DNA of 64,000 bases from Cyanophora paradoxa CCMP329 (taxonomy: Eukaryota; Plantae; Glaucophyta), in the NCBI GenBank assembly GCA_004431415.1, contig QPMI01000193.1, positions 116,787 through 180,786 of the forward strand, read 5' to 3'. Shown here piece after piece: positions 611 to 62,695 of the stretch (position 1 is the stretch's first letter; each line of letters opens with the position of its first letter). Below the pieces are notes generated by a model. The model searched no databases. It had not been told where the DNA came from and saw only the letters and a program-made list of their open reading frames with translations. The translations under genes were made by a program, and so were the position numbers.

Positions 611-3118
<2,508 letters not shown>

Positions 3119-3258
3119 CCGCTGCCGAATCCCTGGCCGGGTACGCTGTTGGACGAGTTGGCAACTTCAGCGGGTTTGAGGCGCCGGCCTCAGCACAGCG
3201 ATCGATATCTTGCAGCACGTTGAAGCCGGTTGAAGCCTGCGGCGGAGCAGCGACGTGC

Positions 3259-6130
3259 ATGAGCGCGGCCCCCGGGCCCGCCTCGATCGTCGGCCGAGCG
3301 ATGCCGCGCGTGAAGACGCGGGTGCGCGTGCCGACGCGCGCGGTCGGCCACAGCTTCGCAGGTCGTCGAGCTCGCCCGCTTACCGCGTGCGCAGCTGGTC
3401 CGTGAGACCGGCCCGCCGCCCCTGCTCGAGCTCTGCATCCGAAACGCGGCGCGCCGGCTGAACCGCCTCCCCGACGACTGCATCGCGGTGCGCGCGGCGT
3501 CGCCTCAGCGCTGCACCGCGCGGACCGACGCCCGCGCGCCGCCGCAGACGCTGCAGGCGCTCCCGTTCGAGCTGGCGGAGCGCATCATGGCGGCGCTCGT
3601 CGAGAAGAAGGTGCGGCGCGCCGCGCGGCCGCGGGAAGCTTTCTCGGCCGCCGCGCGGGGCGCCGGGGTCGGCAAGACACCAGAGCTAGCGCCTTGGCGC
3701 GCGAGGGAGCATGCGCGGAATCCCCACCGGGCCCGGTGGATCGGTGGCGCTCACCCTGTGTAGCTAAGCTCTTGGAGCACCAAAGGCTAAACTCTCTAAG
3801 CTCACTTAAAGCCACCTCCGAACTCGCGCGACGACCTGATCTGTAAAGCTCGTTCTGCGCCCTTAGGACCTCTCTGCGATCAATTTCTTCGTCACGATCG
3901 GCGTACCCGTGGAGGTGCCCGCGTGCCTCTTCCCCTCCCCGCCCTCCGTCTTCCACGCCCCGCGCTAACACCGTACCCCGCCCAGTCCCTCGAGCTGCGG
4001 CGCTTCTCCAAGACCGATCGCATCTTCTTCGAGAACCTCGCCCGGTACCCCCCACCACAACCGGTCCCCGCCAGCACCGACTCGCCTCATCGAGTACCCT
4101 CCGCCCGCTAGCTCCCCGGTCTCCTCCTCCATACGCCGCATCTCCTTCCCTATGGACGCCGAGGTATCCCGTGTACCCCCCACCCCCGGTCCTGTACTCC
4201 GCGTGCCTCAACCGAGTACCCAGGACGCCGAGCTGGAGCTTGTCGCCGCCGTTTGCCCCAACCTCGAGCGCATCGACGTGTCCTCCTGCCTTTCCAGTAC
4301 CCCCCACCCCTGACCCCGTACCCCCCCACCCTCAAGTCAACGCACCGGCGCGCAGTGACGCTCGGGGGCATCGTGCGGGCGCTGCGGGCGCGGCCGGGCG
4401 TGACGGAGCTGCTCGCCTTCAACTCCGCGCAGGCCCGCGCCCCTCCCCCCCATCCGTCCATCCATCCACCCGCCTGCCGACCGCTTGTGCCGGCAGGTCT
4501 CGGCGGCGGACGCGGAGTTCGACGCGGGGGCCTTCTCGGGGCTGGAGGCCCTCTCCCTCGGCTCCGGCTCCCGCCTCCACGACGACGCCCTCGCAGCCAT
4601 CGCCAGGCCCGCCCCCAGCCCCCCCTCTCCCTTCCCTTCCCTTCCCCCCCCCCCCCCCCCCCCTCTCTTACAAAGCTGCCGCGGGGCTGGCCCCCTCCCC
4701 TCGTCCTCGAGCTCTCCGCCCCGCCCCGCCCCGCGCCGCCCGCCCCGCGCCGCCCGCGCCGCCCCGCGCCTCGCCGCTGATGCGGGGTGCATGTAGGAGC
4801 TGTCCGCGGCTGGAGCGGCTGCTGCTGCGGGAGTGCTGGCGCCTCTCGGACGCCTCGCTGGCGGCCCTCGCCGAGCACTGCCCCCGCCTCGCCCTCCTCG
4901 CCCTCTCCGACGCCCGCGAGGTCCCCGGCCCCCCGCCCCAGCCCCTCCTCGCCCCTCCCCCGCCTCCAGCTCCTCGCTAGCTCCTGGCCCACCTTAGAAA
5001 CGCCCGCCATTCATGAAAGAGGGCGACGAGCGCGAGCCGGCGGGCCCCGGGCGACACCCCGTACCCCCCGACGCCTCGCCCCCGCAGGTGACGGACTTCG
5101 GGCTGGCGAAGCTCGCGCGCCGCTGCCCGAGGCTCGCCGAGCTCGAGCTCAAGTCCCTCCCCCAGGCCCGCCCTCCTCCCCCAGAGCGAGACGCTAGCAC
5201 GGGGAGAGACAGAGAAGCGAGCAGGAGCACAGAGGGCGCTCCGGGGCTCTTCCGCCGCCCCGCCCTTCCCCCGCCCTTCCTCGCCTTCGCCTGATCGGCC
5301 TCGGGGCGGGGGGCCAGGTGACGGACCTCTTCCTGTCGCGGGCGGCGGCGTGCCTGCCGGGCCTCGCCGCCCTCCACCTCGAGCACCTCCCCAAGGCCCC
5401 CCCGCCGCGCCGCGCCCCGCCCCCGAGGGCTCTGAGGGGCCGGGGCGCAGGTGACGGACGAGGGCGTGCTGCGCATCGCCCGCGCCTGCACGCGCCTCCG
5501 CGCCCTCGGCCTCCACCACCTCGACAGGCGCCCCCGCGCCCCGCCCGGCCCCTGCTCGCCCGCGGCCGCTGAGAGGGGGCGGGGCAGCTGCTCGGGGGCC
5601 TGGCGGATGCGCTGGCGGGCTCCCGGCGCCCTGCCTGGCGGCCCTCGCCGAGCTCCGCCTCTCCTCCCTCCACACCTCCGACGCCGCCCTCTGCGCCCTC
5701 GCCGCCCGGCCCGCCCCCCGCCCCGCCCCCGCCGCAGGAGCCGCCCCCCGCGCCCCCGCTGAGGCCCGCGCAGGTGCCCCCTCGTGCGCCTCTCCCTCAT
5801 CGGGTGCACGGTCAAGGTGCGCAAGTGGTGCCCCCCTCCGCCCCAGCTCCCCCCAGCTCCCCCCACTAAAGGCGCTTGGGCGGCAGCGGGCCCCCGACCG
5901 ACCCCACATCGCCCGCGCCCTCCGGTGCCCCCCGCTGCATGACCCCAGGCGAACACAGCAACGCCTGTACCCCCATTCTCACGGGCCTCCCTCCAGGGCG
6001 GCGCGGGGGGCGGGGCTCGAGGTGGAGACCGACGGGTCCCTCCCCGAGGCGCGCCCGCACCCGGCCCCGTGCCCGAACGATCCACGTACCCCCCGCGCGC
6101 TGGTCTGAGCGGGCTCCGGACAGGTGGTAG
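3259..6130 (+). CDS. Multi-exon leucine-rich-repeat protein, cysteine-containing LRR subtype (FBXL/AMN1-like); 3' end uncertain
   Basis: Exons encode LRR_CC-type repeats: CPRLERLLLRECWRLSDASLAALAEHCPRLALLAL, VTDFGLAKLARRCPRLAELELKSLPQVTD, VTDEGVLRIARACTRLRALGL. The N-terminal LLELCIRNAA..LQALPFELAERIMAAL is F-box-like. Head-to-head with trpS, ~140 bp between ATGs. Confidence 0.8.
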
Positions 6131-10029: not shown

Positions 10030-10285
10030 TGTCGGATGAGAGGATTCCCACCCGGTGCAGCGTCCGTGCGGTCACGCACGGGCTGGGGCTGTAGCTGGGA
10101 GCACAAGTGGTCTATTCACAAGTGTACCCGTCCAGGGATCGCGTACCCCCAAACGGAGTCGCGCCCGGCGCTAAGTCAGAATACAGAGAGTGCTAGAGCT
10201 AGCTGCTCGATAGCACTAGACTAGGGCTAGCGGCTACGCATAGACTGCCGGCTAGCCTAATCCGAGGGAATCGCGGCACGCGACA
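10030..10285 (-). repeat. 3' LTR
   Basis: TGTCG...CGACA termini; no difference from 28433-28688 seen by eye. Confidence 0.97.
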
Positions 10286-10297: not shown

Positions 10298-10974
10298 GCA
10301 TACGGTGCGTCCTCGCACCGGACCGCGCCAAGCCGAACGTCGAGTCTGCATGCTCGACGGGGCGTCCACCCCACCGCCGGGGTGTGCACCAACCACGGCA
10401 GCGACAGGGCGGCGGCGAGTGAACTCCTCTCGAAGTAGAATGTCCGTCGTCAGCAACCAGATATGCCAGGTAGCATAGCTCGCGACCGAAATAGGAGCCG
10501 ATACCAGCATAGTGCATGTACCTAGGCAACCCCAGGCCAAGCTCGAAAGATGGAAAAGCATAGAACTCGAAACCCCCAAAAGCTGGCCCAAACTCGCTCC
10601 AACGGCGAGAGCCGAAGGAGAGTGGCACGGATGGGAAGTTTCACCGCCTCGGGAAGAAACCAGCGAGGAGGTATCCGGGCCGCCCATCAGGCCCAACGAA
10701 AGGATAGGGCACGACTGAGTGCACCCCCAGCCAGCAACCTCGAGCCCCTCACGGACCCGCAGGCACCCGGGAGGCCTACACCCAGCCACTCTCCACGAGC
10801 GACGGGCCCAGATCCCAGAAAATGGAACGAAAGGCCCAGATGGCGCCCCGTGATTGGCCACCAGCCAACCCACGTCCCACCTCGGAAGCCAGGGCTGAGG
10901 CAAAGCGGGCAAAGAAATCTGCCCCACGGCGCAAGCACAGCGATCGCAAAGGGAACAGCAATGGGACGAGCTTC

Positions 10975-13635
10975 TCACAGGTCGTCGACCAAAATCGCGT
11001 CATCCATCTCAACCTCGTCGCCCTCGGCAGCCCGCTCGGGGCCCTCGGCGTCGACGTCAGGGGCGAGAGGTGGATTTTGTTCTTGAGCGGGCGAGTCCGC
11101 GAGTGCGGGGTCGATCGCCGGCTCGTCGGCGTTCACAGCAGTCTTCCGAGGCCGACCAACGCGGGGACGGGCTTGAGACTCGGAGAGACGCGTGCGGAAC
11201 GGAAGCATGCAGTCGATGTGGGCAACAGTCTCACGCAGAGGACGGGTACGGGCATCGTCCTTGGCGGAGTAGGGCTTAGCCGACCCCTTGACCGTGTAGG
11301 TGTAACCGCCAGGGTTAACACCAGTCACAGTGTAGGGCCCGACCCACGAATTGTACAGCCCTTTGTTGTGTTCGCCCATCCAGCACAATACCTTGTCGCC
11401 AACCTCAAAGCGGCGACGATGAGGCGGGTTGCCGGTGCGAGCAACCATGCGGTTCCGATAGAACCGACGGTACTCGCGCGAGGCAGCGTCGGCGCTCGCG
11501 GCAGCTCGCGTCATCGCGAGAAGGTAATCAGCCGGGTGCGTGTGGTCGGGGTTCACGAAGCGGACGCCGGCTCCGAAGCGCACTTCGCAGGGCAGGTGCA
11601 CTTCAGAACCGCGGTGCAAGACCATCGGGGAGAACCCGGTGGCGGAGTGCACGGTGGTCCGCAACGCGAGAACGATATCGGCGTTGTAAAGAGGCCAGTC
11701 AGAGAGCGGCCGCTTGTGCTCACGGCACATGGCGTAAGCGAGAGTCTTGTAGACTCCGCCCAGGCGCTCGGCGCCGCCGTTCGAGGCGTGGTGGTAGGCG
11801 GCCGCGTGCACGAACCGGGTACCCTTCTCCTTGAAGAACGCGTTCCACGCGCCCCCAACGAGTTGGGACCCGCGGTCCGTCAGGATGCGCGCGGGCACGC
11901 CCTCGTGCGTATAGAAGTCGATCGCGGTGGCGAGCAAGGCCTCGCCGGAGATACGGGAGAGCGGGTAGATATAGCAGAACTTGGTGTATGCGTCGACGTA
12001 CGCGATGATGTATCGCGAACCGTCTTCGTGCATATCCAAGTGGAAGATATCCACCTGCCACAGGTCTCCCTTGCCCGAAGGCTGTATCACCTGAATGGCG
12101 GTACGGCGGGGCTTCGCGGCCTTCGCGAACTGACAGTGCGGGCATGACCGCACAAAGCGAGCGATGGAGGCGTACATGCCAGGCCACCAGAACCGCAGGG
12201 CGATCCGACGGGCTATCACGGGCGCGCCTCGATGGGCCCAGCCCTCGTGATAGGCGTAGAGCACCCTGTCGATCCAAGCGTCCGGCAAGACGGGTAGGAA
12301 CCGGCCGGCAGGGACCAAGGGGTTGCGCTCGATGACGCCGTCGTCGGCCAGGCTGAACTCGCCGGCCAGGCGTGCAAAGCGCTCCTTGGCCCGCAGGCAG
12401 TGAGCGCAGCTGGGCGAGCAGGGATCTGCGTCGCGCCTCGAGCCGCGGGTACAGACAGTTGGATTCTCGCCCTCTGCGTGGAAGGCGAGAAGCTTCTTGC
12501 AGAAGGAATCCTCCTTCTGAGCGGCGAGCAGACGCTTGCGCTTCTCGGGCGGGAACATACGGCGCAGCGCGTCGGGGAGCGCCCCATCGACGGCTGGCGA
12601 GGGTCCGCAGGCCCACGCGTCGAGGACGGTATCCACGAAGACCGGCTTGCACGGCGGGCGAACGTCCCGGCCTCTAGGGTCGAGTTCTACCCACCGCTGC
12701 GGGGCAGCGGCCTCGGCGGCGACCGTCTCAGGCTCGAGCGGGGCGGCGTCGTCGGAAGCCTGCCCGCGGGCAGAGGGGCGACCTCGAGCCCGCGGCGCTG
12801 GCTTGGGGTCCGGGGGGACCGGCCGAACGCGGATCTGGTGGCGAGCAGTCTCCGGGGAGAGCGAGCGTCGGCGCGGAGGCCCGGGAGGCGGCTCGCCCTC
12901 AGGGTCCTCCGGCTCCCACTCAATATGAATCGGCACCGGCCGATCCGAGGGGTCGACCGGGGAGCGCCAGTGGCGCGTGTTGTACTCATCTCGAGGCTGC
13001 CGCCTCAAGGCGGGGCCGCGAGGGAAGAGCGCGTCGGGATGCAGGGGCCGCGGCTCGGCAAATCCCTTGGCGCCCCACCGACGGGGCCCGGTTTCCGAGC
13101 GCTTCGGGACTCGCTCCGCAAGAGCGAGGGGGAAGCCGTCAGCGTCGCAGGCGTCGGAGGGGACAGGCCCTTCCGGCAGCGACTCGTCATCGATCTCGCC
13201 CGAGGCCTCGGCCTCTGCGTGAGCGTCCTCTAGCAGCGCGGCCGGGGCGCCCAGGTCGCCCTCAGGGGCGTCGGGCATCTCCGCGTCCGAGGGAGCCTCG
13301 CGCTCCTCGACAGCGGGCGCCGGGCCCGGCTCTCGTCGTTTCGGGGGCGGCGAGACCGACTCTGGCGCGGGAGGCGCGAAGCGCTCTGGGGCGGCCCGCG
13401 CTCGCTTGCGCGTGGCGGCGTCAGTAGCCGAGGCGGAGGCCTTGGCCTCAGCGAACCCAGCCGACGCAGCAAGCTTGGCGAGCTCGCGGGGCAGGCGTCG
13501 CGGCGCGCGCTCTGGCGGCGGGGGCTCGGCGTCGGAATCGGTTTCCGCAGCACCGCCAGCCTCACCCTCAGGCTCGGGCGCGGGCGCTTCAGGGGCGCCG
13601 GCGTCGGGCTCGGCCTCAGGAGCACTGGCTGGCAC
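10975..13635 (-). CDS. Pol C-terminal part: long acidic/Pro-rich spacer plus integrase
   Basis: HHCC zinc motif (AYHEGWAH...CPHC), DDE core (WQVDIF, ILTDRGSQ, SNGGAERL) and GPY motif (WVGPYTV); no chromodomain visible. Confidence 0.95.
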   Translation of the reverse strand: MPASAPEAEPDAGAPEAPAPEPEGEAGGAAETDSDAEPPPPERAPRRLPRELAKLAASAGFAEAKASASATDAATRKRARAAPERFAPPAPESVSPPPKRREPGPAPAVEEREAPSDAEMPDAPEGDLGAPAALLEDAHAEAEASGEIDDESLPEGPVPSDACDADGFPLALAERVPKRSETGPRRWGAKGFAEPRPLHPDALFPRGPALRRQPRDEYNTRHWRSPVDPSDRPVPIHIEWEPEDPEGEPPPGPPRRRSLSPETARHQIRVRPVPPDPKPAPRARGRPSARGQASDDAAPLEPETVAAEAAAPQRWVELDPRGRDVRPPCKPVFVDTVLDAWACGPSPAVDGALPDALRRMFPPEKRKRLLAAQKEDSFCKKLLAFHAEGENPTVCTRGSRRDADPCSPSCAHCLRAKERFARLAGEFSLADDGVIERNPLVPAGRFLPVLPDAWIDRVLYAYHEGWAHRGAPVIARRIALRFWWPGMYASIARFVRSCPHCQFAKAAKPRRTAIQVIQPSGKGDLWQVDIFHLDMHEDGSRYIIAYVDAYTKFCYIYPLSRISGEALLATAIDFYTHEGVPARILTDRGSQLVGGAWNAFFKEKGTRFVHAAAYHHASNGGAERLGGVYKTLAYAMCREHKRPLSDWPLYNADIVLALRTTVHSATGFSPMVLHRGSEVHLPCEVRFGAGVRFVNPDHTHPADYLLAMTRAAASADAASREYRRFYRNRMVARTGNPPHRRRFEVGDKVLCWMGEHNKGLYNSWVGPYTVTGVNPGGYTYTVKGSAKPYSAKDDARTRPLRETVAHIDCMLPFRTRLSESQARPRVGRPRKTAVNADEPAIDPALADSPAQEQNPPLAPDVDAEGPERAAEGDEVEMDDAILVDDL

Positions 13636-15433
13636 AGGGGCCGCGACTCCTCCTCTGCATAAGAGGAGCGGCCCGGCGGGGAAGAGGGGGCGCTCGCAGG
13701 CGCCGCCCGGGGCGCTCGGCGTCTAGCGGCTCGGCCACCCTCGGCTGGGGCTTCCGCGCGGAAGCCGGCGGAGTTGGCGAGCTGGCGCAGGGCCCGCTCG
13801 GTCGGGCCAGCTGCATCCTAAAGATGCCCAGCGGGACGTCGGGATCCTCAGGCTCAGCCCCTACAGCATGTTGCGGGATGCCGAAGCCTTCGGCGCCCTT
13901 GTAGGCCGCGGGCTTGGACGAGGAACCGTCTGCACCGCCTGGCTGCCAGACGGGGTGGTCCTTAGGGAGACGCGAGCACGCGTCGGGACCCCCGTTCTGC
14001 TTGCCAGGGCGGTAGACGATCTCAAAGTCGTAGGCCTGCAAGAGCAGGGACCAGCGACCGAGGCGGCCCGTCGTCGGGTCCAGCGTCTTCAGCCACTGGA
14101 GGGCGTGGTGGTCGGTCCGCACCAGGAACTGGGGGCCGCCCAGCAGATAGTGGCGCCAATACTTAATGGCCCAGACTACTGCGAGGCACTCCAGCTCCGT
14201 AGCGGAGTAGTTCATCTCGGCCGGCAGCAGCGTGCGGCTGATGAACGCGAGCGGCCGCTCGACGCCTTTGTCGTCGGCCTGGCTCAGAATTGCGCCGATA
14301 GCGTAGGTGCTGGCGTCCGTCTGGAGAATGAAGGGCTTCGAGAAGTCCGGGAACCGCAATATAATATCGCGGCCCAGGAGTTCTTTCAGCTCCTTAAAGG
14401 CGCGGTCGGCGGGGCCGTCCTCTGGCCAACTCCAGACGGCGTCCTTCAATAGAAGGCGCTGCATGGCGTGCACCACTTTGGAGAAGTTCTCGACAAAGCG
14501 GCGGTAGTAGCCGGCGAGGCCGAGGAACGAGCGGAGCTCGTCCGCGTTCTTCGGCGTCTGCCAGTCCGTGATCACCTTGGTCTTCGCAGGGTCCTGGCGG
14601 ATCCCTTCGGCGGAGATGCGGTGGCCGAGAAGGTCGATTTCAGGCACGCAGAAGCGGCACTTCGACGGCTTCAGGCGCAGGTTCGCCTTAGAGATCGTCT
14701 CGAAGAGCGCCTTCAAGTCTAGAAGGTGCTGATCGATGGACGGTGAGAAGACCGTGATATCGTCGATGTACGCGACGACGCAGGTGGTCAGCAAGGGGCC
14801 CAGGATCGCAGTGATCGCGCGGGAGAATGCCGCGGGCCCGTTCGTGACCCCAAACGGCGTAACCTTCCACTGAAAGTGACCCCAGGGGACCACAAATGCA
14901 GTGTAGGCTCGGGAGCCGGGGTGCAGAGGCAGCTGCCAGAAGCCGGCAGTCGCGTCAGCAGTCGAGAAGACCATCGAGCCGCGGAGGCGCTCGAGCTGGT
15001 CGTCTATGCGGGGTAGGGGAAACACGTCCCGCTCGGTGATCTGATTCAGCCTCCGATAGTCGACACAGAAACGCCAAGTGCCGTCCTTTTTGGGGGCCAG
15101 CACTACCGGCGAGCCATATGCCGCTTGGGAGGGCTCGATCAGCCCAAGCTCAAGGAGTTTCTGAATTTCCTTGCGGGCGTGTTCCTCGGCGTGCGGGTTC
15201 ATACGCCGCGGAGGCGTGAACACCGGAAGGCGAGTCGTGAGTTTGATCACGTGCTCGTAATAGAGCAGGTTGCTGGTGCCCTCTTTGGCCTCGACCTTGT
15301 CTGCGAAGACATCCTTGTAGCGCCGCAGGAGCGCGTGAAGTTCGGCTTTCTGCGCCGTCGTGATTGACGGGTGAGAGCCGAGCTCAGGAATCTTCTTCAG
15401 CAGCTCTTGCCACTCCTCCTCTGCATTAGGCAC
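13616..15433 (-). CDS. Reverse transcriptase-RNase H (Ty3/Gypsy type)
   Basis: KKDGTWRFCVDYRRLN, FPLPRIDD, PFGVTNGPAAF and YIDD; RNase H motifs QTDASTYAIGAILSQ, ELECLAVVWAI and TDHHAL. Confidence 0.97.
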   Translation of the reverse strand: MPNAEEEWQELLKKIPELGSHPSITTAQKAELHALLRRYKDVFADKVEAKEGTSNLLYYEHVIKLTTRLPVFTPPRRMNPHAEEHARKEIQKLLELGLIEPSQAAYGSPVVLAPKKDGTWRFCVDYRRLNQITERDVFPLPRIDDQLERLRGSMVFSTADATAGFWQLPLHPGSRAYTAFVVPWGHFQWKVTPFGVTNGPAAFSRAITAILGPLLTTCVVAYIDDITVFSPSIDQHLLDLKALFETISKANLRLKPSKCRFCVPEIDLLGHRISAEGIRQDPAKTKVITDWQTPKNADELRSFLGLAGYYRRFVENFSKVVHAMQRLLLKDAVWSWPEDGPADRAFKELKELLGRDIILRFPDFSKPFILQTDASTYAIGAILSQADDKGVERPLAFISRTLLPAEMNYSATELECLAVVWAIKYWRHYLLGGPQFLVRTDHHALQWLKTLDPTTGRLGRWSLLLQAYDFEIVYRPGKQNGGPDACSRLPKDHPVWQPGGADGSSSKPAAYKGAEGFGIPQHAVGAEPEDPDVPLGIFRMQLARPSGPCASSPTPPASARKPQPRVAEPLDAERPGRRLRAPPLPRRAAPLMQRRSRGPCASQCS

Positions 15434-16405
15434 CGGCCGCGGTGCCTCAGCGGGCTTCGCGTCGGGTGCTGCAGTCGTAGGGGTGGGGCATCGGGCCGGG
15501 CCGAAAGCGAGGCTGTGACCACACTCTGGGGTGGGGCCTCGGCGTCGGCGACCGGTGCGGCCTTGCGGACCGTAACGTCGCCGCGCATGGCGCGGACTGC
15601 ATCGAGCAAGTCGCGCTCCGCTTTTTCGGAGAGACCGGGGAAGGTCGAGCGCAGGGTGGCGTCTCTGGGGACGGACACTGCCTCGACTGCGGCGACGAAC
15701 TCGTCGACCGAGGGCCTGTGATCGGGGCCGGCGTTGGGGACGCGCTTCGTGACGACGTGCTCATAGCATCGTCGTCGAGGCTAATGATGCTCATAGCATC
15801 AAGGTCCTGCAACGGCCGGTCGGCTGTGTCGAAGGGCAGCTCGCCAAACGTGACGACTATATCGTCGACGTCGTAGGGCGGTGCGCGGGGTGGGTCGGCG
15901 GGCTCAGCAGGCGCTGCGCTAGACAGAGCGCGCTGCTTTTCCGCCTCATCTACGACAGAACGTAGGGTGGAGATTATTTTCTCAACGTCTTTGGCGGGCT
16001 CATATGCCGCGCCAAGCATGCGTGCTTTTCTATTAAAGTGGCGGAGTCCAGTGCGGCGTTTGGCAGGCACGATTCGCAGCCGGCGAATCAAGAGGTCTGT
16101 CAATGCACTCGCACTACAAGGCATTTGCTCAGGTTCGTACTCAAAATCACCAGGCGGTAGGGCGACCGCCGAAGCGACCGCTACTACCGATCCTAGCGGC
16201 AGGGTTACCGGCTGCCGGCCAGGATTGCACAACCGCACGTGAAACATTTTGTCTCCCGGGTGATTATGCAGCTGGTAAGGGCAGAGTACGCCCAAGGCTT
16301 GCGGGGACTCCGGCGACGGCTCGACGTAGAGGTGCGGCAACTCACGCGTTGCCGGGCCCTGCCCATTGAGCGTGCATGGGACGAGGGCCTCTCCGACGGG
16401 GAGCT

Positions 16406-17713
16406 TTACTGGTCCCAGGACTCGGACCAGGATCCCAAGCTGGTCCGGAGCCGAAAAGGGACGACGACTTCGCGGTGCAGGTGGTCACGGGCCCGGAGGC
16501 ACCACCCGGACAGCGTCGTGTCGATCTGGCCGTGGACGGCCTGGATCGCGTCCAGGCCGAGCAGAATGTCCGGCTCAACGCCCATGGCGCCGCGCGGGAC
16601 GACGAAGACGCGGCGGCAGAAGCGGAGCGAGCCCAGAACGAAGACTACGTCGGCGCGGCGACAACGAATTTTGTCCCGGTCCATGAAACCGCGGACTATC
16701 GTGTGGCCCTCGACGTAATTGACTTCGTCGGGCGGCAGGCGGTCGAGGACTTCCTGGGGAACTACAGTTCCCTGGGCGCCCGTGTCGACAACAATGCGAG
16801 CGGGCCGTTCAGCGCCGGAGCGGCCGTTCGGCAGGCGCATAGCAATGCTGCCGTGAATGTGCAGTGTCTTTGGCCGGAAGAATTCCAGGGCCCGGTCGCG
16901 CGGGAAGCTAGGTCGGGCGCGGCGGACGTGGAATTCTGGTTCCGGCGGCGCGGGTGGACCCGACAGGTCCGTTGCGCTTGCGGTTGGGGATGGGGGCCGG
17001 GACTGGCGAGCCGCGGCTCGCTCGGCGACTCGGCGCTGCTCTGCCTGGTCGGCCAACGGCGAGGGCTTGGTCCGCTTGCGCGGGCCCGGGCCGTGGCGGT
17101 TGGCGTAGAGCAACTCGTCGCTGGGCGGGTCATAGCCGGCGCGCGTTCCCAGCGGCGTCTCCTCTGCCGGGCGGGGCACGGCGAGGGACGGGCGGTTTTT
17201 GGAGCCCAGGGCGTGGCCCGCGGGCATGAGAGCTTCCTCGTCGGAGGTCAGGCCCTCGGGGTAAATGATCGCGGCGGCCTCGAGCGCGTTCTGCGGGGCG
17301 AACGCCGCTGTCGGCGCTGAACCCGAGAACCACGCGCGAGTCGGCCGTGGCGGGGCCTTGTAGCCCGTTTTGCGCATCGAGATGCCGTAGCGGTCCATGA
17401 TCGCCTGATGCACCGCGCGTAAGGCGGGCTCCAGGGTCTTTGGATCGACCTGCAGCATTTGCGCGGGGTTCGACAGCCAGTTGAAGACCAGCACGGTCGA
17501 GCGCGGCCCGAGCTTGTGCAGCAGGCGGCGGGCCCAGGCCGGCGCAGGCTCGCGGCTCTTTGGTGGGGCCGGGGCGGGCGGCGCGGCTGGCGCCGGCGGC
17601 GCGACTGTTTGAGCGGGCGGCTCGTGGACGACCGTCTGGACGCGGCGGATCGAGATGTACTTCTCGTCCGCCGGCACCGGCACAGCGGCCCGGACCGACG
17701 CCGGCGTATGCAA
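16406..17713 (-). CDS. Retropepsin-like aspartic protease region
   Basis: IVVDTGAQGTVV active site and DILLGLDAI C-terminal motif. Confidence 0.9.
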   Translation of the reverse strand: MHTPASVRAAVPVPADEKYISIRRVQTVVHEPPAQTVAPPAPAAPPAPAPPKSREPAPAWARRLLHKLGPRSTVLVFNWLSNPAQMLQVDPKTLEPALRAVHQAIMDRYGISMRKTGYKAPPRPTRAWFSGSAPTAAFAPQNALEAAAIIYPEGLTSDEEALMPAGHALGSKNRPSLAVPRPAEETPLGTRAGYDPPSDELLYANRHGPGPRKRTKPSPLADQAEQRRVAERAAARQSRPPSPTASATDLSGPPAPPEPEFHVRRARPSFPRDRALEFFRPKTLHIHGSIAMRLPNGRSGAERPARIVVDTGAQGTVVPQEVLDRLPPDEVNYVEGHTIVRGFMDRDKIRCRRADVVFVLGSLRFCRRVFVVPRGAMGVEPDILLGLDAIQAVHGQIDTTLSGWCLRARDHLHREVVVPFRLRTSLGSWSESWDQ

Positions 17714-20700
17714 GTGGGCGGGAAGGTCACAGGGCGCGCGGGCCTCGTGCCCGCGGGGTGACGACGCTTCTGCGACGGTGTATACCGCGAAGAAGGGCTT
17801 TGGTTGGCTTTTGCCGCGGCCTGCATTGCCACGCGAGCCTCGTGCTGGCGCTCGCGCTCAAGCAAGGCTCGCCAGTCTTTGGTGCGATCGAGCGTGGCCC
17901 GCAGAGCCTCGAGATCGGCACGGGGCCCGTCTGGGAGGAGCGAGATCATCATGCCCGTCTCCCCAGCGGAGAGGCTGATCTGCATATCGATGCCGGCCCG
18001 GAGGGCGCGGCAGACGTCTTCCAGGGCCCGCCGAGCGGCCTGCTTTGCCTGGGCGAAGGCTTCGTCTGAGACCTTCTGAGCGCCGCCGGGCTTGGCGCGC
18101 GTCTCGGCGTGGCTAGCGCGGTGCGGATCTGGCGCTCGACTGTTTGAAGCCAAAGCCCCAATTCCGTGACCCCTTGGCCCCGGATCTTCACGTCGCGGCA
18201 GCTCGAGCACTCGCGCACAAACTGCAGGAGGCCCCTGCTGGGACGTCAGCCTGGGGGTTGAAAGTCGTGGCGGCGGAGGCGCGCGGCGCGGCCACTGAGG
18301 CGCGCGGCTGCTCCGGCGTCGACTGGTCTGCGCGCGGCGGCTCGGCCTGGCTCGCACGCGATGACCGCTCCTGGGCCTGAGAGATGGAGGCGCGACCCTC
18401 CGCAGGCTTGGACGGCGCCGCCGACTGCGGACCGGCCTCGCTCTGCCCCTCAGGCCCCTCTAGAAAGGGCTGCTGGCGCTCGTTGCGTCCGCCGTCGGCG
18501 GCTGCCCACCGATGGTGGCGCGGCGGCGCGGGCGAGGACGACGCGGACTGAGCGTCCATCTGGTTCTGGAGCTTGATCAGGACCAGCGCGGTGGCCTGCT
18601 CAGCTCGCGCGGACGCCGAGAGCGAGTCTGGCATCTCAGCGTACTGCGCCTTCCAGACCATGTCGAAGAGCTCGCGCAATGTGGGCGGGCAGCCTCGCAG
18701 GCGGGCGTCGTTCTCGTGCCGCTTGTACGCAGCGTCTACGGCGCCGCGCGGCGGGTCCGGCGGGCGGCGAGAGGACTGGCTGCTGCGAGGGCTGCGGCGG
18801 TCTCGCGGCGAGGCGCGGTCGCGCGAGCCCTTCTTCGAGCTTTTGCGCCGCTTATCGTCATGGCGGGGCTCCGGCTCGGGCTCCGATCGCGCGAGCGCGA
18901 GCGGGAGCTAGAGCGGGACGGTGTTCGGCTCCGGCGGCGTTCCCGCGAGCCTCGGCGAGGGCTCCGCCTGTCGCGAGTGTCGCGAGCCGTGGACCGTCGG
19001 CTCGGCGGGCTGCGGTCGCGGCGCGGCGGCGAGCGATCACGGCGGTCCGGGAGCGGCGGCGGGAGGCCTCGCGGTCCCGGCGGTCCGGCGAAGGGCGTCG
19101 GGAGCCCTCGCGATCGCGGCGTTCCAACGAACGGCGGGACGGCGGCGGCGCCGGGATTGCCGGTGGGGCTCCGGGGAGCGCTCGCGGCGCGTGGAGGGGC
19201 CCGCGTCTCGCGCCTGTCTGGGGTGCGAGAGCGGCGACTGGACGGGCTCGGCGCGGCTCGGGTGTGCGCGAGCGGCGCTGAGACGAGGCCCGCTCAGGGT
19301 CCGGCGGGCCTGCGACGCGCGACTGGCCGTGTCGTCCCTGCGGCTCGAGCTTGCCTCGGCCTGGCGGCTCGAGCTGGGCGGCGGCATCAAGGTCCGGGAG
19401 GGAGTCTCAGCCGGCGGGGCTTGGTCTGGCGGAGCGCTCTCGGCGATCCGCTCGACCTTCACCTTCCCGTCCGAGACGGTTACGCGCATGGTCTTGGGGT
19501 CATACCCCTGCTGCCGCGCGAGGAACGCATCCAGCCCGAACGGGTCGTTCGGGTCGACAGCGGGTTGTGCGGGTTGCGCCTGGCCACCGCCGCGGTCGCC
19601 GCCACGGTCACGGTGGCCTCGGCCGTCGCGACCGCGGTGCCGGCCGCCCCGCTGGTGACCCTGCCCGCGGCCGCCTCGGCCAACGGCCTGGCCCGCGTTG
19701 CGCCGGGGCCGCGCCTGCTGCGGCGCCGTCGGCGGCGCGGCGGTCTGCGCAGCGGCCTGCGCCGGCGCGGGCGCCGACGGGGTGGCGGATGGCGCCGCCT
19801 CGGCGGGTCGTCCGCGAGCCCGCCGACGATGGTTGAGGGCGGCTGGAACCGCACGCCCGCCCACGTCGCGCGGACCGCTCCTTCGTAGATCGGCTGGTAC
19901 GGCGTGCGAACCAGAAGGCTTTCGGCCTCCTTATCGACAGCCGCCGTCGCAGTCAGGCTGCGCCGGGCCGAGGGCGCGGCGCCCTTGTTCTGGACCGCGT
20001 CCCACATCAGCGCCGGGCGCAGAGCCTCAACGTCCCAGTCGGGGAGCACGGGGTCGTCCGTCTCCCAGTCGATCGGGCGCGCGAGGCGGATCGCGACATT
20101 CAGATCGGCGTAGAGCGAACGGAGCATCGTCTCGAACTGAGGCCGCAGGGTATAGCCTCATCGGTAAAGATGAGCCCCAGCGGGAAGTTCCCGGGACAGT
20201 TCTCCAGCTCCTCGGCGGCGCGGGCGGCCTCAAGGTGGCGCTGTATCCCACTCTTGCCCCGGCGCCAAGGTCATCGCCGGCGGGCCACGCGTCCTCGGCG
20301 CCGGCCATCGGGGGCGAGCCGAGCTCAAGACGCTGGTACCCGAGACCGTGCGGCATGTTTGTGAGGTACGCGCGGATGCCGTCCGCCAGCGCGCGGGCAT
20401 CCGAGTCGGCGCACTCATCCCTCGTCATAGTGCGCAAGAGGGCCCTGAAGACCTCGGCCACGTTCTGGGCATGGCGGCGTTCAGGGGCGCACAGTTGTCC
20501 ACCCGCTGCGCGAGCAGCGGGATGCGGGATACTGGAAGCCCTGCAGCATCGCGAGCAGGATCCGCCCACAGATCGCCGCACGACCCTCGTGGTCCGGCAC
20601 GACCGCATTGTTCGGGCCAAACTTCCACGCAAGCGTGGGATGACCGTCCGGGTACGTCGGCCTCGCGTCCGCGTCGAAGACCTTCTTGCCCTGAGGCAAG

Positions 20701-23700
20701 ACGTCGGACCCGCGGTCCGGCTTGGCCGTCGGCTTAGTCAGGAAGGCCTCGTGAATGAACACCATCAGACCGTCCGGCACCACGCAGCGGAACGAGTTCA
20801 ACACCTTGTTGAAGTCATCCATGTGATCGGCGACCGCCCGAGCGATCTCGGGGACGTAGTCAGCCGGGCGTTCCGACTCGACGTCCATGGCCGCAGCCGA
20901 CAGAAAGTCATCAGCCCAGTGCTGGCTGCGGAGGTGCTTGCCCGGCGCGTGACGCTGGAAGAAGCGCGCGTGCCAGGCCAGCGTAAAACCGATGGCCGTC
21001 GCGAGGATTTCCTCTTCCGCCGGGATCGGCGCCCAAGGGCACGTCCCCGGAGGTGAGTTCGGGAAAGGCGGCAGCTCGTAACCGAACGCGGTGACGAGCC
21101 GCGGGTTCGCGTGGCTCTTCTTGGGCTGGCTCGCAAGCTGGGCGACCGTCACTGCGAGCCACAGCTTCTTGTTCTCGCGCTGGTGCGGCGCGCCCCCTGC
21201 GACGTCCTTGTCGCAGGCAGCGTTCGGCGCGGGCGTGGCCGTGCCTGCCACGAGGCGGGGCGCGTAGATGCGCCGCGTCTGCAGGCGACCCTCAACGTTC
21301 TCGACGCGCTTGTCGGCGAGCGGGCGCAGCAGGGCCAGCACGGCGACGTCGCGCGCGAAGCGGGTCGCGAACGGCGTCCTGGCGTCCTCCTCGTTCGGGT
21401 CGGCGATGTTACCGCCCAAGACTGAGGTGTGCAGGGTGGGCGCTCGGGGTGCGGCATGTACGGCGGCGGGGCGTTCCGCGCGCCGCCGCCTTCGTGGAAG
21501 AAGGCGGTATACAGCACCCGCGAGACCTGGCCCAGGGTCGAACACACGGGTGCGTGGGCTGTGCCCTCGTGCGTGAGATCCCAGGCGCCCGTGTACGTCG
21601 GGACGGCAGACTGTGCGGTACGGGTCCCGACCGCGAGTACTGCACGATATCCAAGCTGACGCCGCAGGCGGCGTGCGGGAATGCAAGCCCCTGCAGGTCG
21701 AAGAGCTCCGGATCCTCGTCGAACGGCCGCTGAGGCGGGCCTACGAGCGAGAACCAGTTCACTATGCCGCGCGCGGCGGGGCCGACGCGCTTGAGCATAG
21801 TTGAGCACAGCTCGCCCATGTGCTGGTCCTGCAGCGTGAGCACGTCGACGTTGTACTCGTCAACGTCGCCGGCGTGCTGCCAGCGCAAGGGGTAGCTGAT
21901 CGCGGGCAGCGTTGCCCATTCAGTGAACCCTGGCTCATAGCATTCCAGGGGCCGGAAAAACGCGTGTTTCCGGTCCATGTACTCGCGCAAGAGCTTGTGA
22001 TCGTTGGCGTACGTCGGGTCCGCCAACGAGAACAGCGGCCGCGGCTGCCAGTCCTTGTGCGGCTCGAACGGCCTGTGCGCCGCCGCAGGGATGGCAGCCG
22101 GCGCCTCTTCCTTCTCGCCCTCTTCCTCTTCGCTCTCGACATGGTCAATGTCGAGCGGCTCGAGGCGGGGCTCAGGCTCATCGGCGATGTAGGTGCCCAC
22201 AAGCGCATCGTCGAACGTGAACGACTGCCGTGCAGCGTGACGCTCGAGGGCATGCAAGACCTTCTCCTGGAAGGCCGCGCGCTGGGCGGTCAGGGCCAAG
22301 CCCCTGTGCGGGTCGCTCTCGGCGGCTTCCTCCTGCGCGCGCGTCCCTAGCTGCAGGTGGCGGCGCAGCCAGCGAACCCCGTACGGGAACTCCAGGCCGG
22401 CGCGTTCCGCGGAGGAACGGTGGTCCCAACCGCCTCGGCGCGGAACATGGTGTGAGCACGCAAGAGGTACTGGGCCCACTGCGGCGGGATGACGGCCGCG
22501 CTCGGGTTGAAGCGGCCCCCGTGCGTCCACCGCGGCAGGCGCGTGGCAGGGATCGTCCAACGCAGAGTCAGGAAGTGCTCCAACTGCTGCTCCGTCCACT
22601 CATGCAGGTGGAACGGGAGATCGTGGGAGTGGGGCGTGACGGGGCCACGGAGCCCCAGCGCGATCATGAAGAGCTCGAACGCGGCCGCGTTGAGCCGCGC
22701 GAGGCGAACGGTGCGATCGGCTCTGAGCGCGACGCGGCCCTCCGGCGGCTCCTCGTGCGGCACGGGCGGCCCATCCAGGCGGTTCTGGATTGGCGTGCTC
22801 CTCTCGCTGGCGAGAAACGCCTTGAGGTGCGGGACCCGCAGGTCCTCGAACGTGCCCTTCAGTGCGTCGAAGGGGATGCTCCAGCGGTGGGCGAGATCAG
22901 ACCGGGCCGTCATGGGCCACTCGGTGATCTGTTTCCCCTCACAGAGCCGAGGCGGGCACCCCGGCACTGCGAGGACGCCGCTCATCACGCCATAGCCTCG
23001 TACAGGGCCCGCTGGCTCAGGTTCTCATCGATAGCCGACGGCGGCGGCGGCGGCGGCGCTTCCTCGGGCGCCTCATCGCCGTCGCCCCGCTCGCCCATCT
23101 CGGCGTCTTCCCCTCAGCCTGCCCACGGCGGGCGCTGCGGGTTCGTGGCCCCTGCGAGCCGCGCCCACGGGTGCTGACGCGCACGACCCCGTCCCGCGGC
23201 CACGCTCGCCGCGACGGGCGGCCTGCCGGGAGCCGGCGCGGTCGCGCGCGCGACGTCGAGTAGCGGCTCGCTCAGGCGAGGCTCGACAGGCGCGGGCTCA
23301 GTGGCGGGCGGCGTCGGAGCGGCGGTGGGCCGCGGCGCCATCGGCTCGCAAGCGGCGGCCATGTTGCCGCGGCGTGCAAGGTCACGAGCTTCGCCGTCGG
23401 TGCAGGCGGCGGGACAGGAACGGGCGCCGGCCGCGCCGGCGCTGGCGGGTCCCTCGGCGAGAGCGCCTTCACAGGCGGGCGCGGCGGCAGGCAGGCCTTA
23501 GCCTCCTTGATCGTCGCGCTGACGGCCTTCGCCGTGTAGGCGCCCGTCGTGTCCGACGCCGGCTTCGGCGTGGTGGGCAGGTCGTGGAGAGGAGTGGGGG
23601 TGCGGCTGCCTGCATCCGTGCGCCACTTCTCCACGAGCGCGATCATGTCCTTGACAGCCTCGTCATTGAAACCGGCCCGCTTCTTCAGCAGCCTACGGAA

Positions 23701-26200
23701 TAGAATGACGAGGTGGGCCCGGTCGCCCGCCTTGGCCCCCTCGATGTACCGGAGCAGCTCCGCGGCCCCGGCGGATCCGGGAACCGTGCGGGCCCAGGCT
23801 GCATCGCACAGGGCGGTGAGCGGCGGGCGCGGGCCGAGCTGGCTCAGCACGTAGAGCTCCTCAGGCACGATCGTGGGCAGCTGCCCGCCTCGCGTCGTGC
23901 CGTGCAGGGGCAACTGCGTGGTGCGCGTGATCGGGCGCACGCGGCCGACCCTCCACGTGCCAGGCTCTGCCCCGTGCAGGCGCGGCCAGTGCAGCCAGGT
24001 GTCGCACAAGTGCAGGTCCCGGAGGTGCAGAACGCGGGCGGCGGCGACGCGGGGCTCCACCGGAACGCGTTCAACCGTGCGGGACTCGCCCTCGCTCACG
24101 ACCGGGAAGGCGGGGCACGGCCGTCGCGGTACGCGGTCAGACGCTCCGCGAGCGCTGCCCGCAGCCATCCCTCGGCGTCCCGATCCGAGCGGAGACGTGC
24201 CCGCCCGGGATCGGAACCTCAACGGAGGCAGCCAGGACGGCAAGCGAGTGAACGGCTTCCGTGAACTCCGAGTCCGAGGGGACAAGAGGGTTCCCGTCGG
24301 CCAGGGCAACGGCGCTCTTGTGGGCGTCGTGGGGACCGGCGCGGCCGCCGATGCAAGCCACGGTCTTCCACTGGATCGCGTGCTCGAGGGCCAGCAGGGC
24401 GAAGCCATAGGCGTCGACCCGCGCGTCCACCATGAGCGGCTCGGCGAACTTAAAGAAGCGGCCGAGGATCTTCTCGACGGCGCCGGCGGTGCCCGGGGCA
24501 CCGTAGTCGACGCGGTGCAGGAAATAGCCCGCAACAGTCGAGGCGCACGCAAGGCGGAGGCGGTCCTGTGCCGGCAACAGCTCGCTCAGCTCGATTAGCT
24601 GGCGCGGCCCGACACTGTCATCTCGTGCGGCTCGAGAGAGGCCGCCACGGGCGAGTGCTGGCCAATGCTCCAGTGGCGGCGGTATGGCTCCAGCCAGCCG
24701 GCGGTAGCGACGCACTCGTCCCCAAGCTTCGTAAGCTTGTGGGCGTCGGGCTCGACTGCGGGGCGACCCTCGGGCGTGAGGCCCTCGGCGTGCGGCCACG
24801 CGTGGCCCCGGCCCACTTCGCGGCGACGCGAGAGGCCTGGTGCGTGAGGCTCATGATTTCATAATAGTGCGTCGGCCAGGCGTGAGCCAGCGTGTCCTGG
24901 GACAGCGGGTCATGCCCCAGCATCTGCAGGAACGCAGTGGGGAGGGTCCGCGAGCCGAGGTACGTGCTCTCGGTGGCGAGCGGCTGAGAGAACGCCGCAA
25001 GCAAGAAGGAGAGCGTCTGGCGGGTGCGGGCCGGGCAGCGGAACGCAGTGGCATACCACTGCTCGTCCCGGACCTCGATCAGCCCCTCGCTCACAGTGCA
25101 GCCGCAGTGAGTCTCGCACGGCGCTGGTACAGGAACGCCGCGCGGTCGAGCGGGACCGACGCGGCGCCCTTCAGCTTGTGCGCGTCCACGTTCCAGAGAG
25201 GAACGGGCCCAGCTCGTGCTCGCGGCCCTTCACCGGCTCTAACTCAACGGCTCCGAAGTGAGTGAGGTCTAGGCCGGGGCTAGCGCTGAGGAGGCGAGCG
25301 CGGTTGAGGCGCAGGGTCTCCTTAGACGCTACGGTCGCGTCCTCGTCGGCGAGGGAGGCGCCGTCGTCGGTCACCTCGAGGCTCGCTACCGTCTCGGCCC
25401 CGAGGAGTACCCCAGGCAGCAGCCCACGCCGGCGGCGGGGTCCGCCGGAGCCTCGGCGGCGGCGGTCTCGGGGACCGACTTGGTGGGAGCGAGCTCCGTC
25501 GCGGGCTCGGGACCCTTCGCTTCTGCGTCAGCGCCCTCGACCTCCGTTGGGTCCGGGGCGGCCGCCAAGAGGAGTGCGACCTCCTCAAGGGCGGCGTCCA
25601 CGATGCCGGCGGCGAGCTCGGCGGGGAAAGAAGTCGGCACGGGCGTCGGCGCGGGACCCTTCGCTGCTGCGTCAGCGCCCTCGACCTCCGTTGGGTCCGG
25701 GGCGGCCGCCAAGAGGAGTGCGATTTCCTCGAGGGCGGCGTCCACTGCGTCGAACGCGACCTTCTTCTCCCCTCGTCCAGGCCCGACTCCGGGCGGGTCG
25801 GCAACAGGTCCTGCGCCTCGCAGGGGCCGGCCTCTCGGCTCCCGTGGGGCACAGGTCTGGGCGGCTTTCCCGGACAGCTGCACTACTGCGATCGCGAAAG
25901 CGGTGGCGGCTGCGGCGACCGCGTTGAGAGCGGGGCCGTCCCGGGGTCCTGCAGCGCGGCGGCGTGCGCCGCGGCCGCTGCGGTGAAGGCTCGGAAGGTA
26001 TCGTCGACCAACGCCTCGTCGCTGCGCACGATGCGCACACGGTACACGTGCTTTTCCTTGCCAAGCTCGGCGGGCGCCGGGCCGCCGTGGGCCCCGACCC
26101 GTGGCCGCCGGTCGGCGCGGGAAGCAGTGCAGTCGCGGACGGGCCGGCGGCGCCGCTTCGGGCAGCCTGCTCGAGCATGGCGCGCGCGATCGTGAAGGCG
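17714..26200 (-). CDS. ~8.5-kb run of overlapping, frame-shifted ORFs of unknown function between Gag and protease
   Basis: Protein-like, same-strand ORFs abut one another (25094-24618, 24799-24137, 24552-23272, 22988-22347, 22599-21409, 21686-20481, 20632-20027, 20127-19480, 18679-18188, 18357-17248). No domain recognised. Confidence 0.7.
25509..25745 (-). repeat. Two ~93-bp coding direct repeats within the retroelement
   Basis: Encodes DAALEE(I/V)ALLLAAAPDPTEVEGADA(A/E)AKGP twice. Confidence 0.85.
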
Positions 26201-26206
26201 TTGGGG

Positions 26207-27888
26207 TCAGCCCAGGGCGCCGGCGTCGCGGGCGGCACGGGCGGGGCTGCAGCGGCGGCGGCGTGTTCTGCAAGCGCGCGGCGGACCGCGGCCTCGAGCG
26301 TCTGCGCCTGGGCCGGCAGGACGCGGCCAGGTGGCCGGTTTGCCGCAGTTGTAGCACGCCCGGGGCCCTGCAGCTTGCTGGGGCGGGGGCTCGAGCGGCC
26401 GTTCCCACCTGCGGCGCGGGGTAGAACCGGCGCTTCGGGTCACCGGTGCCTGCGCCCGTTGGCCCGCGGCGCTTGGCCGGGTTGATTGCCGACCACTCGG
26501 CAGAGGCCGCGGGTTGGTCCGGCACTCAAACGAGTAGTGCGACTCGCCGCAGTGGCACGGCCGCCGGGGCTTCTCGGGGAGACCCCGGGCCTTCAGGAAG
26601 TCTTTGATCTTCTGCTGATAGACCGGGTCGTCAAGGCGGGGCGGCGGTGCGGACGCCGACGGGTAGAGCGCGCGGACTACGACGAGGGGCTCGTCCCGAG
26701 CAATGAGCTGCAGGAACGAGATGACCTCGGCGTTCTGATCCTCGGCGTCGTCCGCGTCCCACCCGTACGCGTTTGCCTCAAGCTCTGCGATCTCGGCTTC
26801 CGACACCGTCGTCGCGAGCATGATGCGCGTGCCCGCGCCGGCGCCCGCGTTCGAGCGCGAGGGACGACGGGGACAGCTGGCGTGTGCGTGATCGGCGGCG
26901 CGCTCTGCGGCGTGCGCGAGGCAGCCGTGGGCGCCTGCAGCGGCGTCCCGCGCGAGCCCAGCACTAGGGCCGAGCCGGGGACTTTGGAGATATCGACGTC
27001 CCAGGCGCCCAGTTCATTGGTGCGCTTGGTTACCAGGTCGATGACCGCAGAGGGTCCCGTGATCTCGCGGTCCGCGATCTTCTGCGACAGCTCGTCATAG
27101 ATCTTCCGAGCCGTGGAGAAGTTCGTCATCATGTGCCGGCGATCGGTGTCCGAAATCTCGGAGTCTTCGAAGTCGCGGCACTGATTGCGAGTGCGGCGCT
27201 TGAGCATCTGGCCCGCGTGGCGCATGAGTGCCATAAGCGGTGTCTCGTGCGCCTCGCGGCACTCCGGGATGATGCTCAAGTCGAGGACGCGGCGATAGAA
27301 CGCCTCCGGCGCCTCGCCCACGTGCGGCAGGTCGAGGAGCGCCTTGTACCGGTCAGGGTTCCGCATCTCGGCGTCATCTTCGAGACGGCGCCTGATCGCG
27401 GTGTACGTGACCGTGAGGGCGGTCCGCTGCAAGCCCTCCTCGGCTTGCGCGATCTTCTCGTCGAGCGTCTCGAGGATCGCGACGTCTCGCGGGTCCGCCG
27501 TGCTCGTGCGCGCACGCTCGGCCCGGTACGCCTTCAGCTTCTCGAGCTCGCGAGTGTCGATCTGCTCGGCGCTCTGGAACAGCGAGATGTTCTGGCGCAC
27601 GGGGTGCCCGTGATCTAGCGTGCCGAGAAGAGCCCACCCAGTTCGCTTCTGCACTTCAATGTGTGCAGTCGGCGAGACACTGAGCAAGTCCTTGCTCATG
27701 CTCGCGCAGCTCTCGAACTGGCGGAGGTGGTCCTGAACCGTGCGCTGATCGCTGCCCGGCGGCAGCTTCGGCAGGCTCTGGATCCATTGCAAAACATTTG
27801 ATCCGCTCATAGAGTCCATGTCGGCGGCGCCACGCGCGTGCGCGGCCCGGACGACGAACTCCGCGGAGGCTCCGGTCCCCGAGGACAT
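26207..27888 (-). CDS. Gag (capsid plus two zinc knuckles), frame-shifted
   Basis: LPKLPPGSDQRTVQDHLRQFE and the MHR-like HVGEAPEAFYRRVLDL. Knuckles are CHCGESHYSFEC and CYNCGKP/GHLAASC, the latter split by a 1-bp deletion. Confidence 0.8.
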
Positions 27889-28432
27889 TCTCAGGTCAAG
27901 CGGCGACGTAATGCCACGCTTTTCCGTGAGAGAATGTGCCTCGCTCGAGATCCGAGGCCGTCGTGGTCCACAGCAGCGGCGAGCAAGCTCACTAGCTCGG
28001 CTGCGGCGATTCCGGAGACAGCTCGGGCGCGCACGCCTCAGCCGTCGATCCGATCGCTCTTCGTCTTGTCCAGCACGATCGCAACAGCCGGAGAAGGCTG
28101 GCGTCGCGGCGAGTGACTAGCGACCGATCAGGAATGATCCCACGGGCTCGCACGCAGCTCGCTCAGGAAACGGCGACGATCCGATCGGGACGGGGATCCC
28201 TCGGTATTCGCGCGCGTTCCTGGATCCGCAGGACTAAGTTCTGGTTCTTTCCAGAATGTTCGGTCGCCAACTGCGGATCAGCCCGGAGCGGCGCAGGCGG
28301 GGCGCGAGAAGCGACCCACGACCTCTGCTGAGGTCTACCTGCGCGCCGGCTGAGCCGCGGTCGCCGAGCTGGGTCGGTTGCTGATGACGGGTCGCTGATG
28401 ATCGGGGTTGGGCTCCGTGAGCAGATGGCGCC

Positions 28433-28688
28433 TGTCGGATGAGAGGATTCCCACCCGGTGCAGCGTCCGTGCGGTCACGCACGGGCTGGGGCTGTAGCTG
28501 GGAGCACAAGTGGTCTATTCACAAGTGTACCCGTCCAGGGATCGCGTACCCCCAAACGGAGTCGCGCCCGGCGCTAAGTCAGAATACAGAGAGTGCTAGA
28601 GCTAGCTGCTCGATAGCACTAGACTAGGGCTAGCGGCTACGCATAGACTGCCGGCTAGCCTAATCCGAGGGAATCGCGGCACGCGACA
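28433..28688 (-). repeat. 5' LTR
   Basis: 256-bp direct repeat of 10030-10285. Confidence 0.97.
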
Positions 28689-51100: not shown

Positions 51101-52009
51101 AACACACCCAACACACCAGGCACAAGAGCGGTGCCAGGCGCAAACACAACCGTCAAGTCGCTGGCAGCGGCAGCAGTATAGCTGGAAGGAGCGCTAATGT
51201 CGAATTTGACGCCGGTTTCCGATATTTCCACGTTGCCGAAGGAGAGTTGCGTCTGGCTCGTCGATATTGAGAAGTCGCTAACAAGGAGATTTTGTAGGCC
51301 GACGAAGGTCAGCTCCGAACTGCAAGTAACAGGGACAGAGCCTGGTGAATTCAGCGCTGCAGTTCGTCGAATGCGCGAGATGCTCTTGTTTTGCGGCTGG
51401 CAGAGAATGTTCGTAGGTGTGGTCGTTAGAATACCTGCGCCAGGGGCATAGAGTGAGCCAGGCGCTTTGTCCTTTCGCTAAATGCTTTGATTTGACAACA
51501 TTGGGACTAATGGATGCGTAATATATCTTACCAATAACGCCAACCGTCCCACTCCCGATGACGCTTCCTCCAGTGGGGTAGCGGACTCTGCGAACAACGT
51601 CGCATTTGCCCAGGACACGGCAAGACAAACCACGCACTCGATACTAAAGGATGTGCGCGTCGTTGAATCTGAAACGCGTGCATAGAACTTGTACAGGCTG
51701 CCCAGCTCTGCACCAGTGACTGTGAAGGAGGCTGGCTGCGTCGCTCCAAACGGCCAAACGTTTCCGACACGAGCGGCATCCGCTGGTACTTCCACGCTGG
51801 CCGTGATCTCCGTTTCGGGAATGCCCCGGCAAGCTAAGGCGCACTCGGCAAACCTTCCACGCAGGAGGCGAGCCGGGCTGCACGAGACATCACAGGACTG
51901 AGCGTTCGCAGAGCTCGAAAGAAGGCCCAGAAGCGCCGCTGCGAGTACAAGCCAGGCCGAGGCTCGCAAGCTGCTCGTGAACCCGCCGTTGATAAAGCGC
52001 TTCTGCTGC
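45200..52009 (-). CDS. Large multi-exon type I membrane/cell-surface protein with Cys-paired beta-rich repeats, SEA-like module and one TM helix
   Basis: Signal-peptide-like AWLVLAAALLGLLSSSANAQ. Repeated CxxxR(L/V)xxG....C units (CSPARLLRGRFAEC, CRASRLRYGASTVC, CDVFRLQRGQSVKC, CPRRVRRGTNITC, CTPARLRRGLTATC, CLRRRLPYGGRMRC). SEA-like IQSIRPGSVIVVVEIL. TM LSAGAIAGIVIGSIAGFFLLVGVACWVYF. Confidence 0.75.

Positions 52010-52995: not shown

Positions 52996-53028
<33 letters not shown>

Positions 53029-56028: not shown

Positions 56029-56059
<31 letters not shown>

Positions 56060-62662: not shown

Positions 62663-62695
<33 letters not shown>

Follow-up and report, generated by a model that had tools for sequence, protein, structure and literature searches.

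Two orphan protein blocks as very probable Gag-fused cargo of a young, giant Ty3/gypsy retrotransposon in Cyanophora paradoxa

A contig of the glaucophyte alga Cyanophora paradoxa CCMP329 (QPMI01000193.1, assembly GCA_004431415.1) harbors an 18.7 kb Ty3/gypsy element with long terminal repeats (LTRs), within which two large orphan protein blocks are encoded. The window analyzed here is the 64,000-nucleotide stretch at positions 116,787 to 180,786 of the forward strand; coordinates are given as window positions, and all features of the element lie on the minus strand. The 5' LTR (28433..28688; 256 bp, TG...CA ends) is the same as the 3' LTR (10030..10285) at 256 of 256 bases. A 5 bp target-site duplication, GCGCG, flanks the pair, GGCGCC follows the 5' LTR and a purine-rich tract precedes the 3' LTR. 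The long open reading frame (ORF) starts at the sole ATG after the LTR (27888), as in sister copies, and opens with a capsid-like Gag region assigned by position (26990..27888). No Pfam family matched this region in the window element or its sister copies, suggesting that the libraries cover this lineage poorly. The nucleocapsid (26313..26560), placed by tblastn and matching PF00098 in sister copies, combines a variant C-x-C-x3-H-x4-C motif with a CCHC knuckle. Far downstream follow an aspartic protease with a DTG motif (16544..16807; PF13650, E 8.6e-05, slightly short of the curated cut-off), reverse transcriptase and RNase H (14030..15094; PF00078, PF17917, PF17919), and the integrase zinc-binding and core domains (11791..12285; PF17921, PF00665), the Pfam domain order being that of Ty3/gypsy elements. 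No chromodomain was found after the integrase in the Pfam search of the element, which on this criterion is not a chromovirus. The polyprotein also has another long insert, ~400 amino acids (aa) rich in Pro, Glu and Ala, which separates RNase H from the integrase zinc domain (12600-13620).

The two blocks are placed between the CCHC knuckle and the protease. Block 1 (25374-23600, ~594 aa; 23560..25400, ~600 aa on wider limits) shares the Gag frame in sister copies, and block 2 (22990-19800, ~1,066 aa; 19850..22990, ~1,050 aa on narrower limits) is under purifying selection. Between them runs a Pro/Ala-rich linker (23000..23560; 24% Pro), an arrangement that a first-pass annotation, made from the sequence alone, had described correctly. 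The two blocks alone amount to ~1,650 aa and to ~1,890 aa with the linker, in agreement with the ~1,900 aa which that annotation had placed between nucleocapsid and protease; the full knuckle-to-protease stretch without a domain match is nevertheless longer, at ~3,200 aa. It had also called the blocks rich in Trp, His and Phe: they are modestly rich in Trp (2.0-2.3%) and His (3.6-3.9%), whereas their Phe content (2.7-4.1%) is ordinary, and Cys makes up 1-1.6%. The possibility that the blocks are duplicates of one another was rejected by comparing the two.

The same stretch holds several further segments, some of them unplaced. Upstream of block 1, a helical segment conserved in two families, which includes the most hydrophobic 19-residue window of sister model P0023, is followed by an acidic two-copy repeat (together 25400..26050), the highly conserved end of which directly adjoins block 1. 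The best conservation between families falls here, directly before block 1 (25330-25480; 74% over one 100-column window), and this segment carries Y-SSGAETVAS, a candidate protease site similar to the polyprotein start M-SSGTGAS. Downstream of block 2 lie an RGG-rich box (19580..19690), present in the P0023 sequence and in the window read-through, and an RS-rich tract with 35% Lys+Arg (18760..19150).

As read, the window region breaks into many short frames, and a path through it based on codon usage puts nearly every break at one missing base. Short-read contigs, built from 20 DNA-like runs and containing 86-88% of sampled words, differ from the window at 19700-25450 by two substitutions and 20 gaps. 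In each of the 12 listed of 21 differences, the contigs have a single additional G or C, present at full main-contig depth, and almost every such base falls at a run of G or C. With an X placed at seven of these positions, block 1 reads without stops over 622 codons in one frame; four such positions suffice to open 831 codons of block 2 (23030-20540). Furthermore, the diverged sister model P0008 reads uninterrupted through block 1, switching window frame at the same gap positions, and the published C. paradoxa assembly is described as made from PacBio reads (PMC6704402). Given the short-read bases, the P0008 read-through and the PacBio-based assembly, the frame breaks are most likely long-read assembly errors. 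Decay of the element was rejected as their cause. In the host annotation, copies of the element appear as multi-exon genes (EukProt P0001-P0029), the predicted introns of which skip the frame errors.

Over the element as a whole (10300-28400), the listed contigs account for 46 gaps within the coding part (49 entries in all, one past the stop), and two further bases are required near 17800 and 16460, both between listed contigs. If both of these junctions read through, a single frame runs from the ATG at 27888 to a stop at 10975 and encodes 5,653 aa. However, an in-phase CCCTTTT heptamer after the protease (16454..16460) may be a true -1 frameshift site or may reflect an assembly error; in the first case the products would be a 3,841 aa Gag-cargo-protease protein and a frameshifted Pol. 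Among natural models, the longest (P0023; 3,082 aa) extends from Gag to beyond both blocks and ends short of the protease, while P0025 (2,303 aa) spans Gag through both blocks. No RNA run was listed among those containing the sampled words, and one presumed RNA run barely covered the element; neither result bears on expression.

The cargo is a shared property of many copies. Block-bearing gene models occur on 22 contigs. Of 29 matching proteins, 20 are labeled C. paradoxa (all 20 checked) and the other nine bear EukProt names of the same style. Gag contains the start of 15 of the 16 block 1 models, and the remaining one starts in the acidic repeat just upstream. This linkage in sister copies is to Gag; linkage to pol is observed for the window copy. 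Main-contig depth is 1,750-1,960, compared with ~50-110 for contigs with only short chance matches to the region, which suggests a family of roughly 20-30 near-identical copies, depth being no direct copy count. Short-read depth over pol (10300-16900) is higher, at 2,300-3,900 against ~1,900 for the cargo, suggesting that related elements share pol and are without this cargo at 90% identity. The element is a young, many-copy, giant Ty3/gypsy retrotransposon. On two contigs a second family (P0019, P0025) shares the start and keeps the order of knuckles, block 1, linker and block 2. The two families agree at 52.4% of residues in block 1, at 46.0% and 52.8% in two overlapping parts of block 2 (compared over its first 740 aa) and 42.0% in the capsid; both blocks are therefore better conserved than the capsid, with long identical runs and conserved W, Y, G, H, D and few C.

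Selection was scored on the 40 best-supported of 209 substitution entries, of which two mark synonymous positions where the window departs from every contig, and one lies outside the scored frames. In block 2, 10 of 13 listed substitutions are synonymous against 29% expected (P 0.0005), and on this excess the block is clearly constrained by purifying selection. For block 1, P0008 shows fewer residue changes than expected from its nucleotide differences in two stretches (8 vs ~17 and 21 vs ~28), with 7 and 25 of 400 simulations as low; the test assumes that the contigs represent the P0008 subfamily, an assignment that the listed changes bear out in one of the two stretches. Neutral evolution of block 2 and confinement to a single copy, either of which would have spoken against a functional system, are accordingly at odds with the data. 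The first-pass reading of the stretch as a candidate accessory system is supported in part, its release by the protease and any anti-silencing, structural or host-directed role being putative. Taken together, the anatomy of the element, the unbroken frame from Gag to block 2 in sister copies, the many copies, the two families and the selection on block 2 make it very probable that the blocks are selected, conserved, in-frame Gag-fused cargo.

Searches for relatives led back to the element itself. A block 2 profile, run with HMMER in a full scan of 1.84 billion representatives, found 11 matches, all copies of the two families, and no non-element protein that might be a host donor gene was among them. 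Block 1 was found in the same species only, in word-seeded searches limited to proteins of 322-2,000 and 1,058-3,020 aa. No match was accepted for either block in Pfam, PHROGs or NCBIfam; a zf_VAL1_N match (E 0.017-0.35) was rejected as below cut-off, its Cys pattern being lost in family 2. Sequence and profile searches of PDB returned knuckle or chance matches only, so that across these databases and the HMMER scan no known transposable element domain or host gene emerged to account for the blocks. The ESM Atlas gave no usable match for either block, a result that indicates neither novelty nor absence, and low-sensitivity scans of viral and metagenome contigs, made with block 2 only, showed no relative. 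AlphaFold models of the blocks reached predicted local distance difference test (pLDDT) scores of 32 and 29, too low for use, a failure attributable to lack of alignment depth; two Foldseek runs were meaningless at such scores. No published description of this element family was found in a literature search covering sources other than Repbase, supplements and most subscription papers.

The layout itself has a precedent. The planarian elements Burro and GYPSM1 are reported to encode polyproteins of 4,873 and 5,140 aa in which cargo, Env among it, is inserted in frame between knuckles and protease (PMC6431247). Like the present element, they are Ty3/gypsy elements with one huge Gag-led polyprotein and thousands of cargo residues between zinc knuckles and protease. 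The first-pass generalization that extra ORFs of LTR elements do not lie inside the Gag-protease junction was consequently too strong, since in these planarian elements several domains, and an Env in frame, are described at that site (PMC6431247). The C. paradoxa element shares this trait, a giant polyprotein that carries its cargo in frame, with one pre-protease junction not directly seen, and its 5,653 aa, if both junctions read through, exceed both planarian lengths. Nevertheless, Burro and GYPSM1 are >30 kb, compared with 18.7 kb, 256-bp LTRs and an algal host here. The cargo also differs: MATH, BIR, BCL2-like, ubiquitin-like, ankyrin and Env domains are listed for Burro (PMC6431247), whereas none of the first five had a Pfam or PDB match in the present cargo. 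An LRGG-type ubiquitin-tail cleavage motif is absent from P0023, P0025, P0019, P0026, P0028 and the three minus frames of the element. In-frame Env homology before the protease was likewise not found in sequence-level searches, with no match, no membrane helix and low Cys: neither block has a clear membrane helix, windows above 1.6 occurring only upstream of block 1, and this together with the few cysteines makes Env unlikely and fits soluble intracellular proteins. A beta-rich-looking segment between protease and reverse transcriptase (16150-16400) has no Pfam match; Burro has a dUTPase-like domain at that place. On size and cargo, the element is not assigned to Burro, the comparison being one of layout and cargo rather than reverse transcriptase phylogeny.

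Two other systems bear comparison. Gypsy-7a_cRei of Chlamydomonas reinhardtii is described as a recently spreading 15.4 kb element with a PHD finger inside Gag-Pol (PMC9940879). It resembles the present element as a long algal Gypsy with recent spread and an accessory part within Gag-Pol, but that part is a recognizable PHD finger, while no PHD finger or chromodomain was found here and the cargo is far larger. In plant LTR elements (Athila, Grande, RIRE2, Retand, Ogre), additional ORFs are reported to be separate and mostly located between pol and the 3' LTR (PMC7264820). As here, they are family-wide conserved extra coding sequences of obscure function and origin, with no host donor; in contrast, the present cargo is an in-frame part of the Gag-protease junction. 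Because Burro and GYPSM1 already hold cargo in that junction, what is new is the cargo itself, not the layout.

RGG boxes and RS tracts mark RNA-binding, splicing-linked proteins, and their position right after block 2 would suggest roles in binding RNA and in handling it in the nucleus. As the favored reading, it is tentatively proposed, at a probability of about 0.4, that the blocks are soluble proteins that help with the handling of the 18 kb RNA or with its escape from silencing. The cargo would be translated together with Gag and, with no break separating the two, presumably at Gag levels. Cleavage of Gag-Pol polyproteins by an element's own protease is established behavior, and here the protease may cut in the flexible acidic, Pro-rich and RS-rich spacers that bound the blocks, thereby freeing them. 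The freed blocks might then help the RNA to escape host processing or silencing and to reach the particle. An 18 kb RNA must stay intact in a host reported to methylate most repeats (PMC12344493), which favors such helpers, and the presence of ~20-30 copies despite this methylation counts in their favor.

Several points weigh against this proposal and the evidence beneath it. No homolog, motif or usable structure links either block to a function; neither the RGG box nor the RS tract is part of a block, both may come from a separate product, and the family 2 models end before both tracts. The protease cleavage sites are candidates only. Constraint on block 1 appears less clear than on block 2, with 10 of 24 listed substitutions synonymous against 30% expected (P 0.16), and seems to rest more on conservation between families; for both blocks, the scored substitutions are a minority of the total. 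LTR identity may partly reflect assembly polishing. As Pfam misses even the capsid, absent matches say little on fold novelty.

The same Gag fusion that suits helper proteins would also provide capsid-like amounts of a structural product, and the blocks could be an extra shell, scaffold or exit protein that packages or transmits the 18 kb genome. Their conservation above that of the capsid and their position, equal to that reported for the in-frame Env of Burro (PMC6431247), agree with this; it is nonetheless doubtful, given few cysteines, no clear membrane helix in the blocks and no sequence match to viral families or solved structures. Similarly unlikely is that one or both blocks are captured enzymes with a known fold (nuclease, methyltransferase, demethylase or protease), too diverged to be recognized by sequence and directed at host DNA, RNA or proteins. 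Such an origin would explain why the families are identical over long stretches, W, Y, G, H, D and few C being conserved, a library miss that extends even to the capsid would be compatible with it, and capture of such domains by retrotransposons is documented (PMC6431247; PMC12344493). Yet no catalytic motif was recognized, PDB profile searches gave chance matches only and the 11 HMMER matches of block 2 included no non-element donor.

It is highly improbable, and largely refuted already, that the blocks are captured or nested passengers without function. Restriction to one species in all searches and the non-significant synonymous excess in block 1 (listed substitutions) would suit passengers; thousands of open codons in two families ~50% apart, conservation exceeding that of the capsid and the synonymous excess in block 2 do not. 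A bolder extension, in which the blocks are two new folds forming an unprecedented system within the 5,653 aa polyprotein, be it a second shell or exit machine that does without Env and serves an oversized particle, or a dedicated counter-silencing enzyme, is considered rather improbable.

Elsewhere in the window, a ~4 kb block is duplicated (38620-42600 and 52000-56070; 13.4 kb spacing, 86-99% identity in matched pieces), and its frames include, on a by-eye reading, a Cys/His zinc-finger-like start. Host genes with many short GC-rich introns occupy 1000-2740 and 57000-64000, which by eye we take to be a tryptophanyl-tRNA synthetase-like gene and an ankyrin/channel-like gene.

Burro-style giant polyproteins thus extend beyond planarians, to a cultured, axenic alga with a young, many-copy family whose cargo has no known relative. 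Assembly errors in repeats mask such elements as ordinary multi-exon gene models. If the helper proposal is true and the RNA evades splicing or methylation-linked silencing, or if the blocks instead enlarge the particle, the cargo would bear on how the usual 10 kb limit of retroelements can be broken, and also on what may replace Env.

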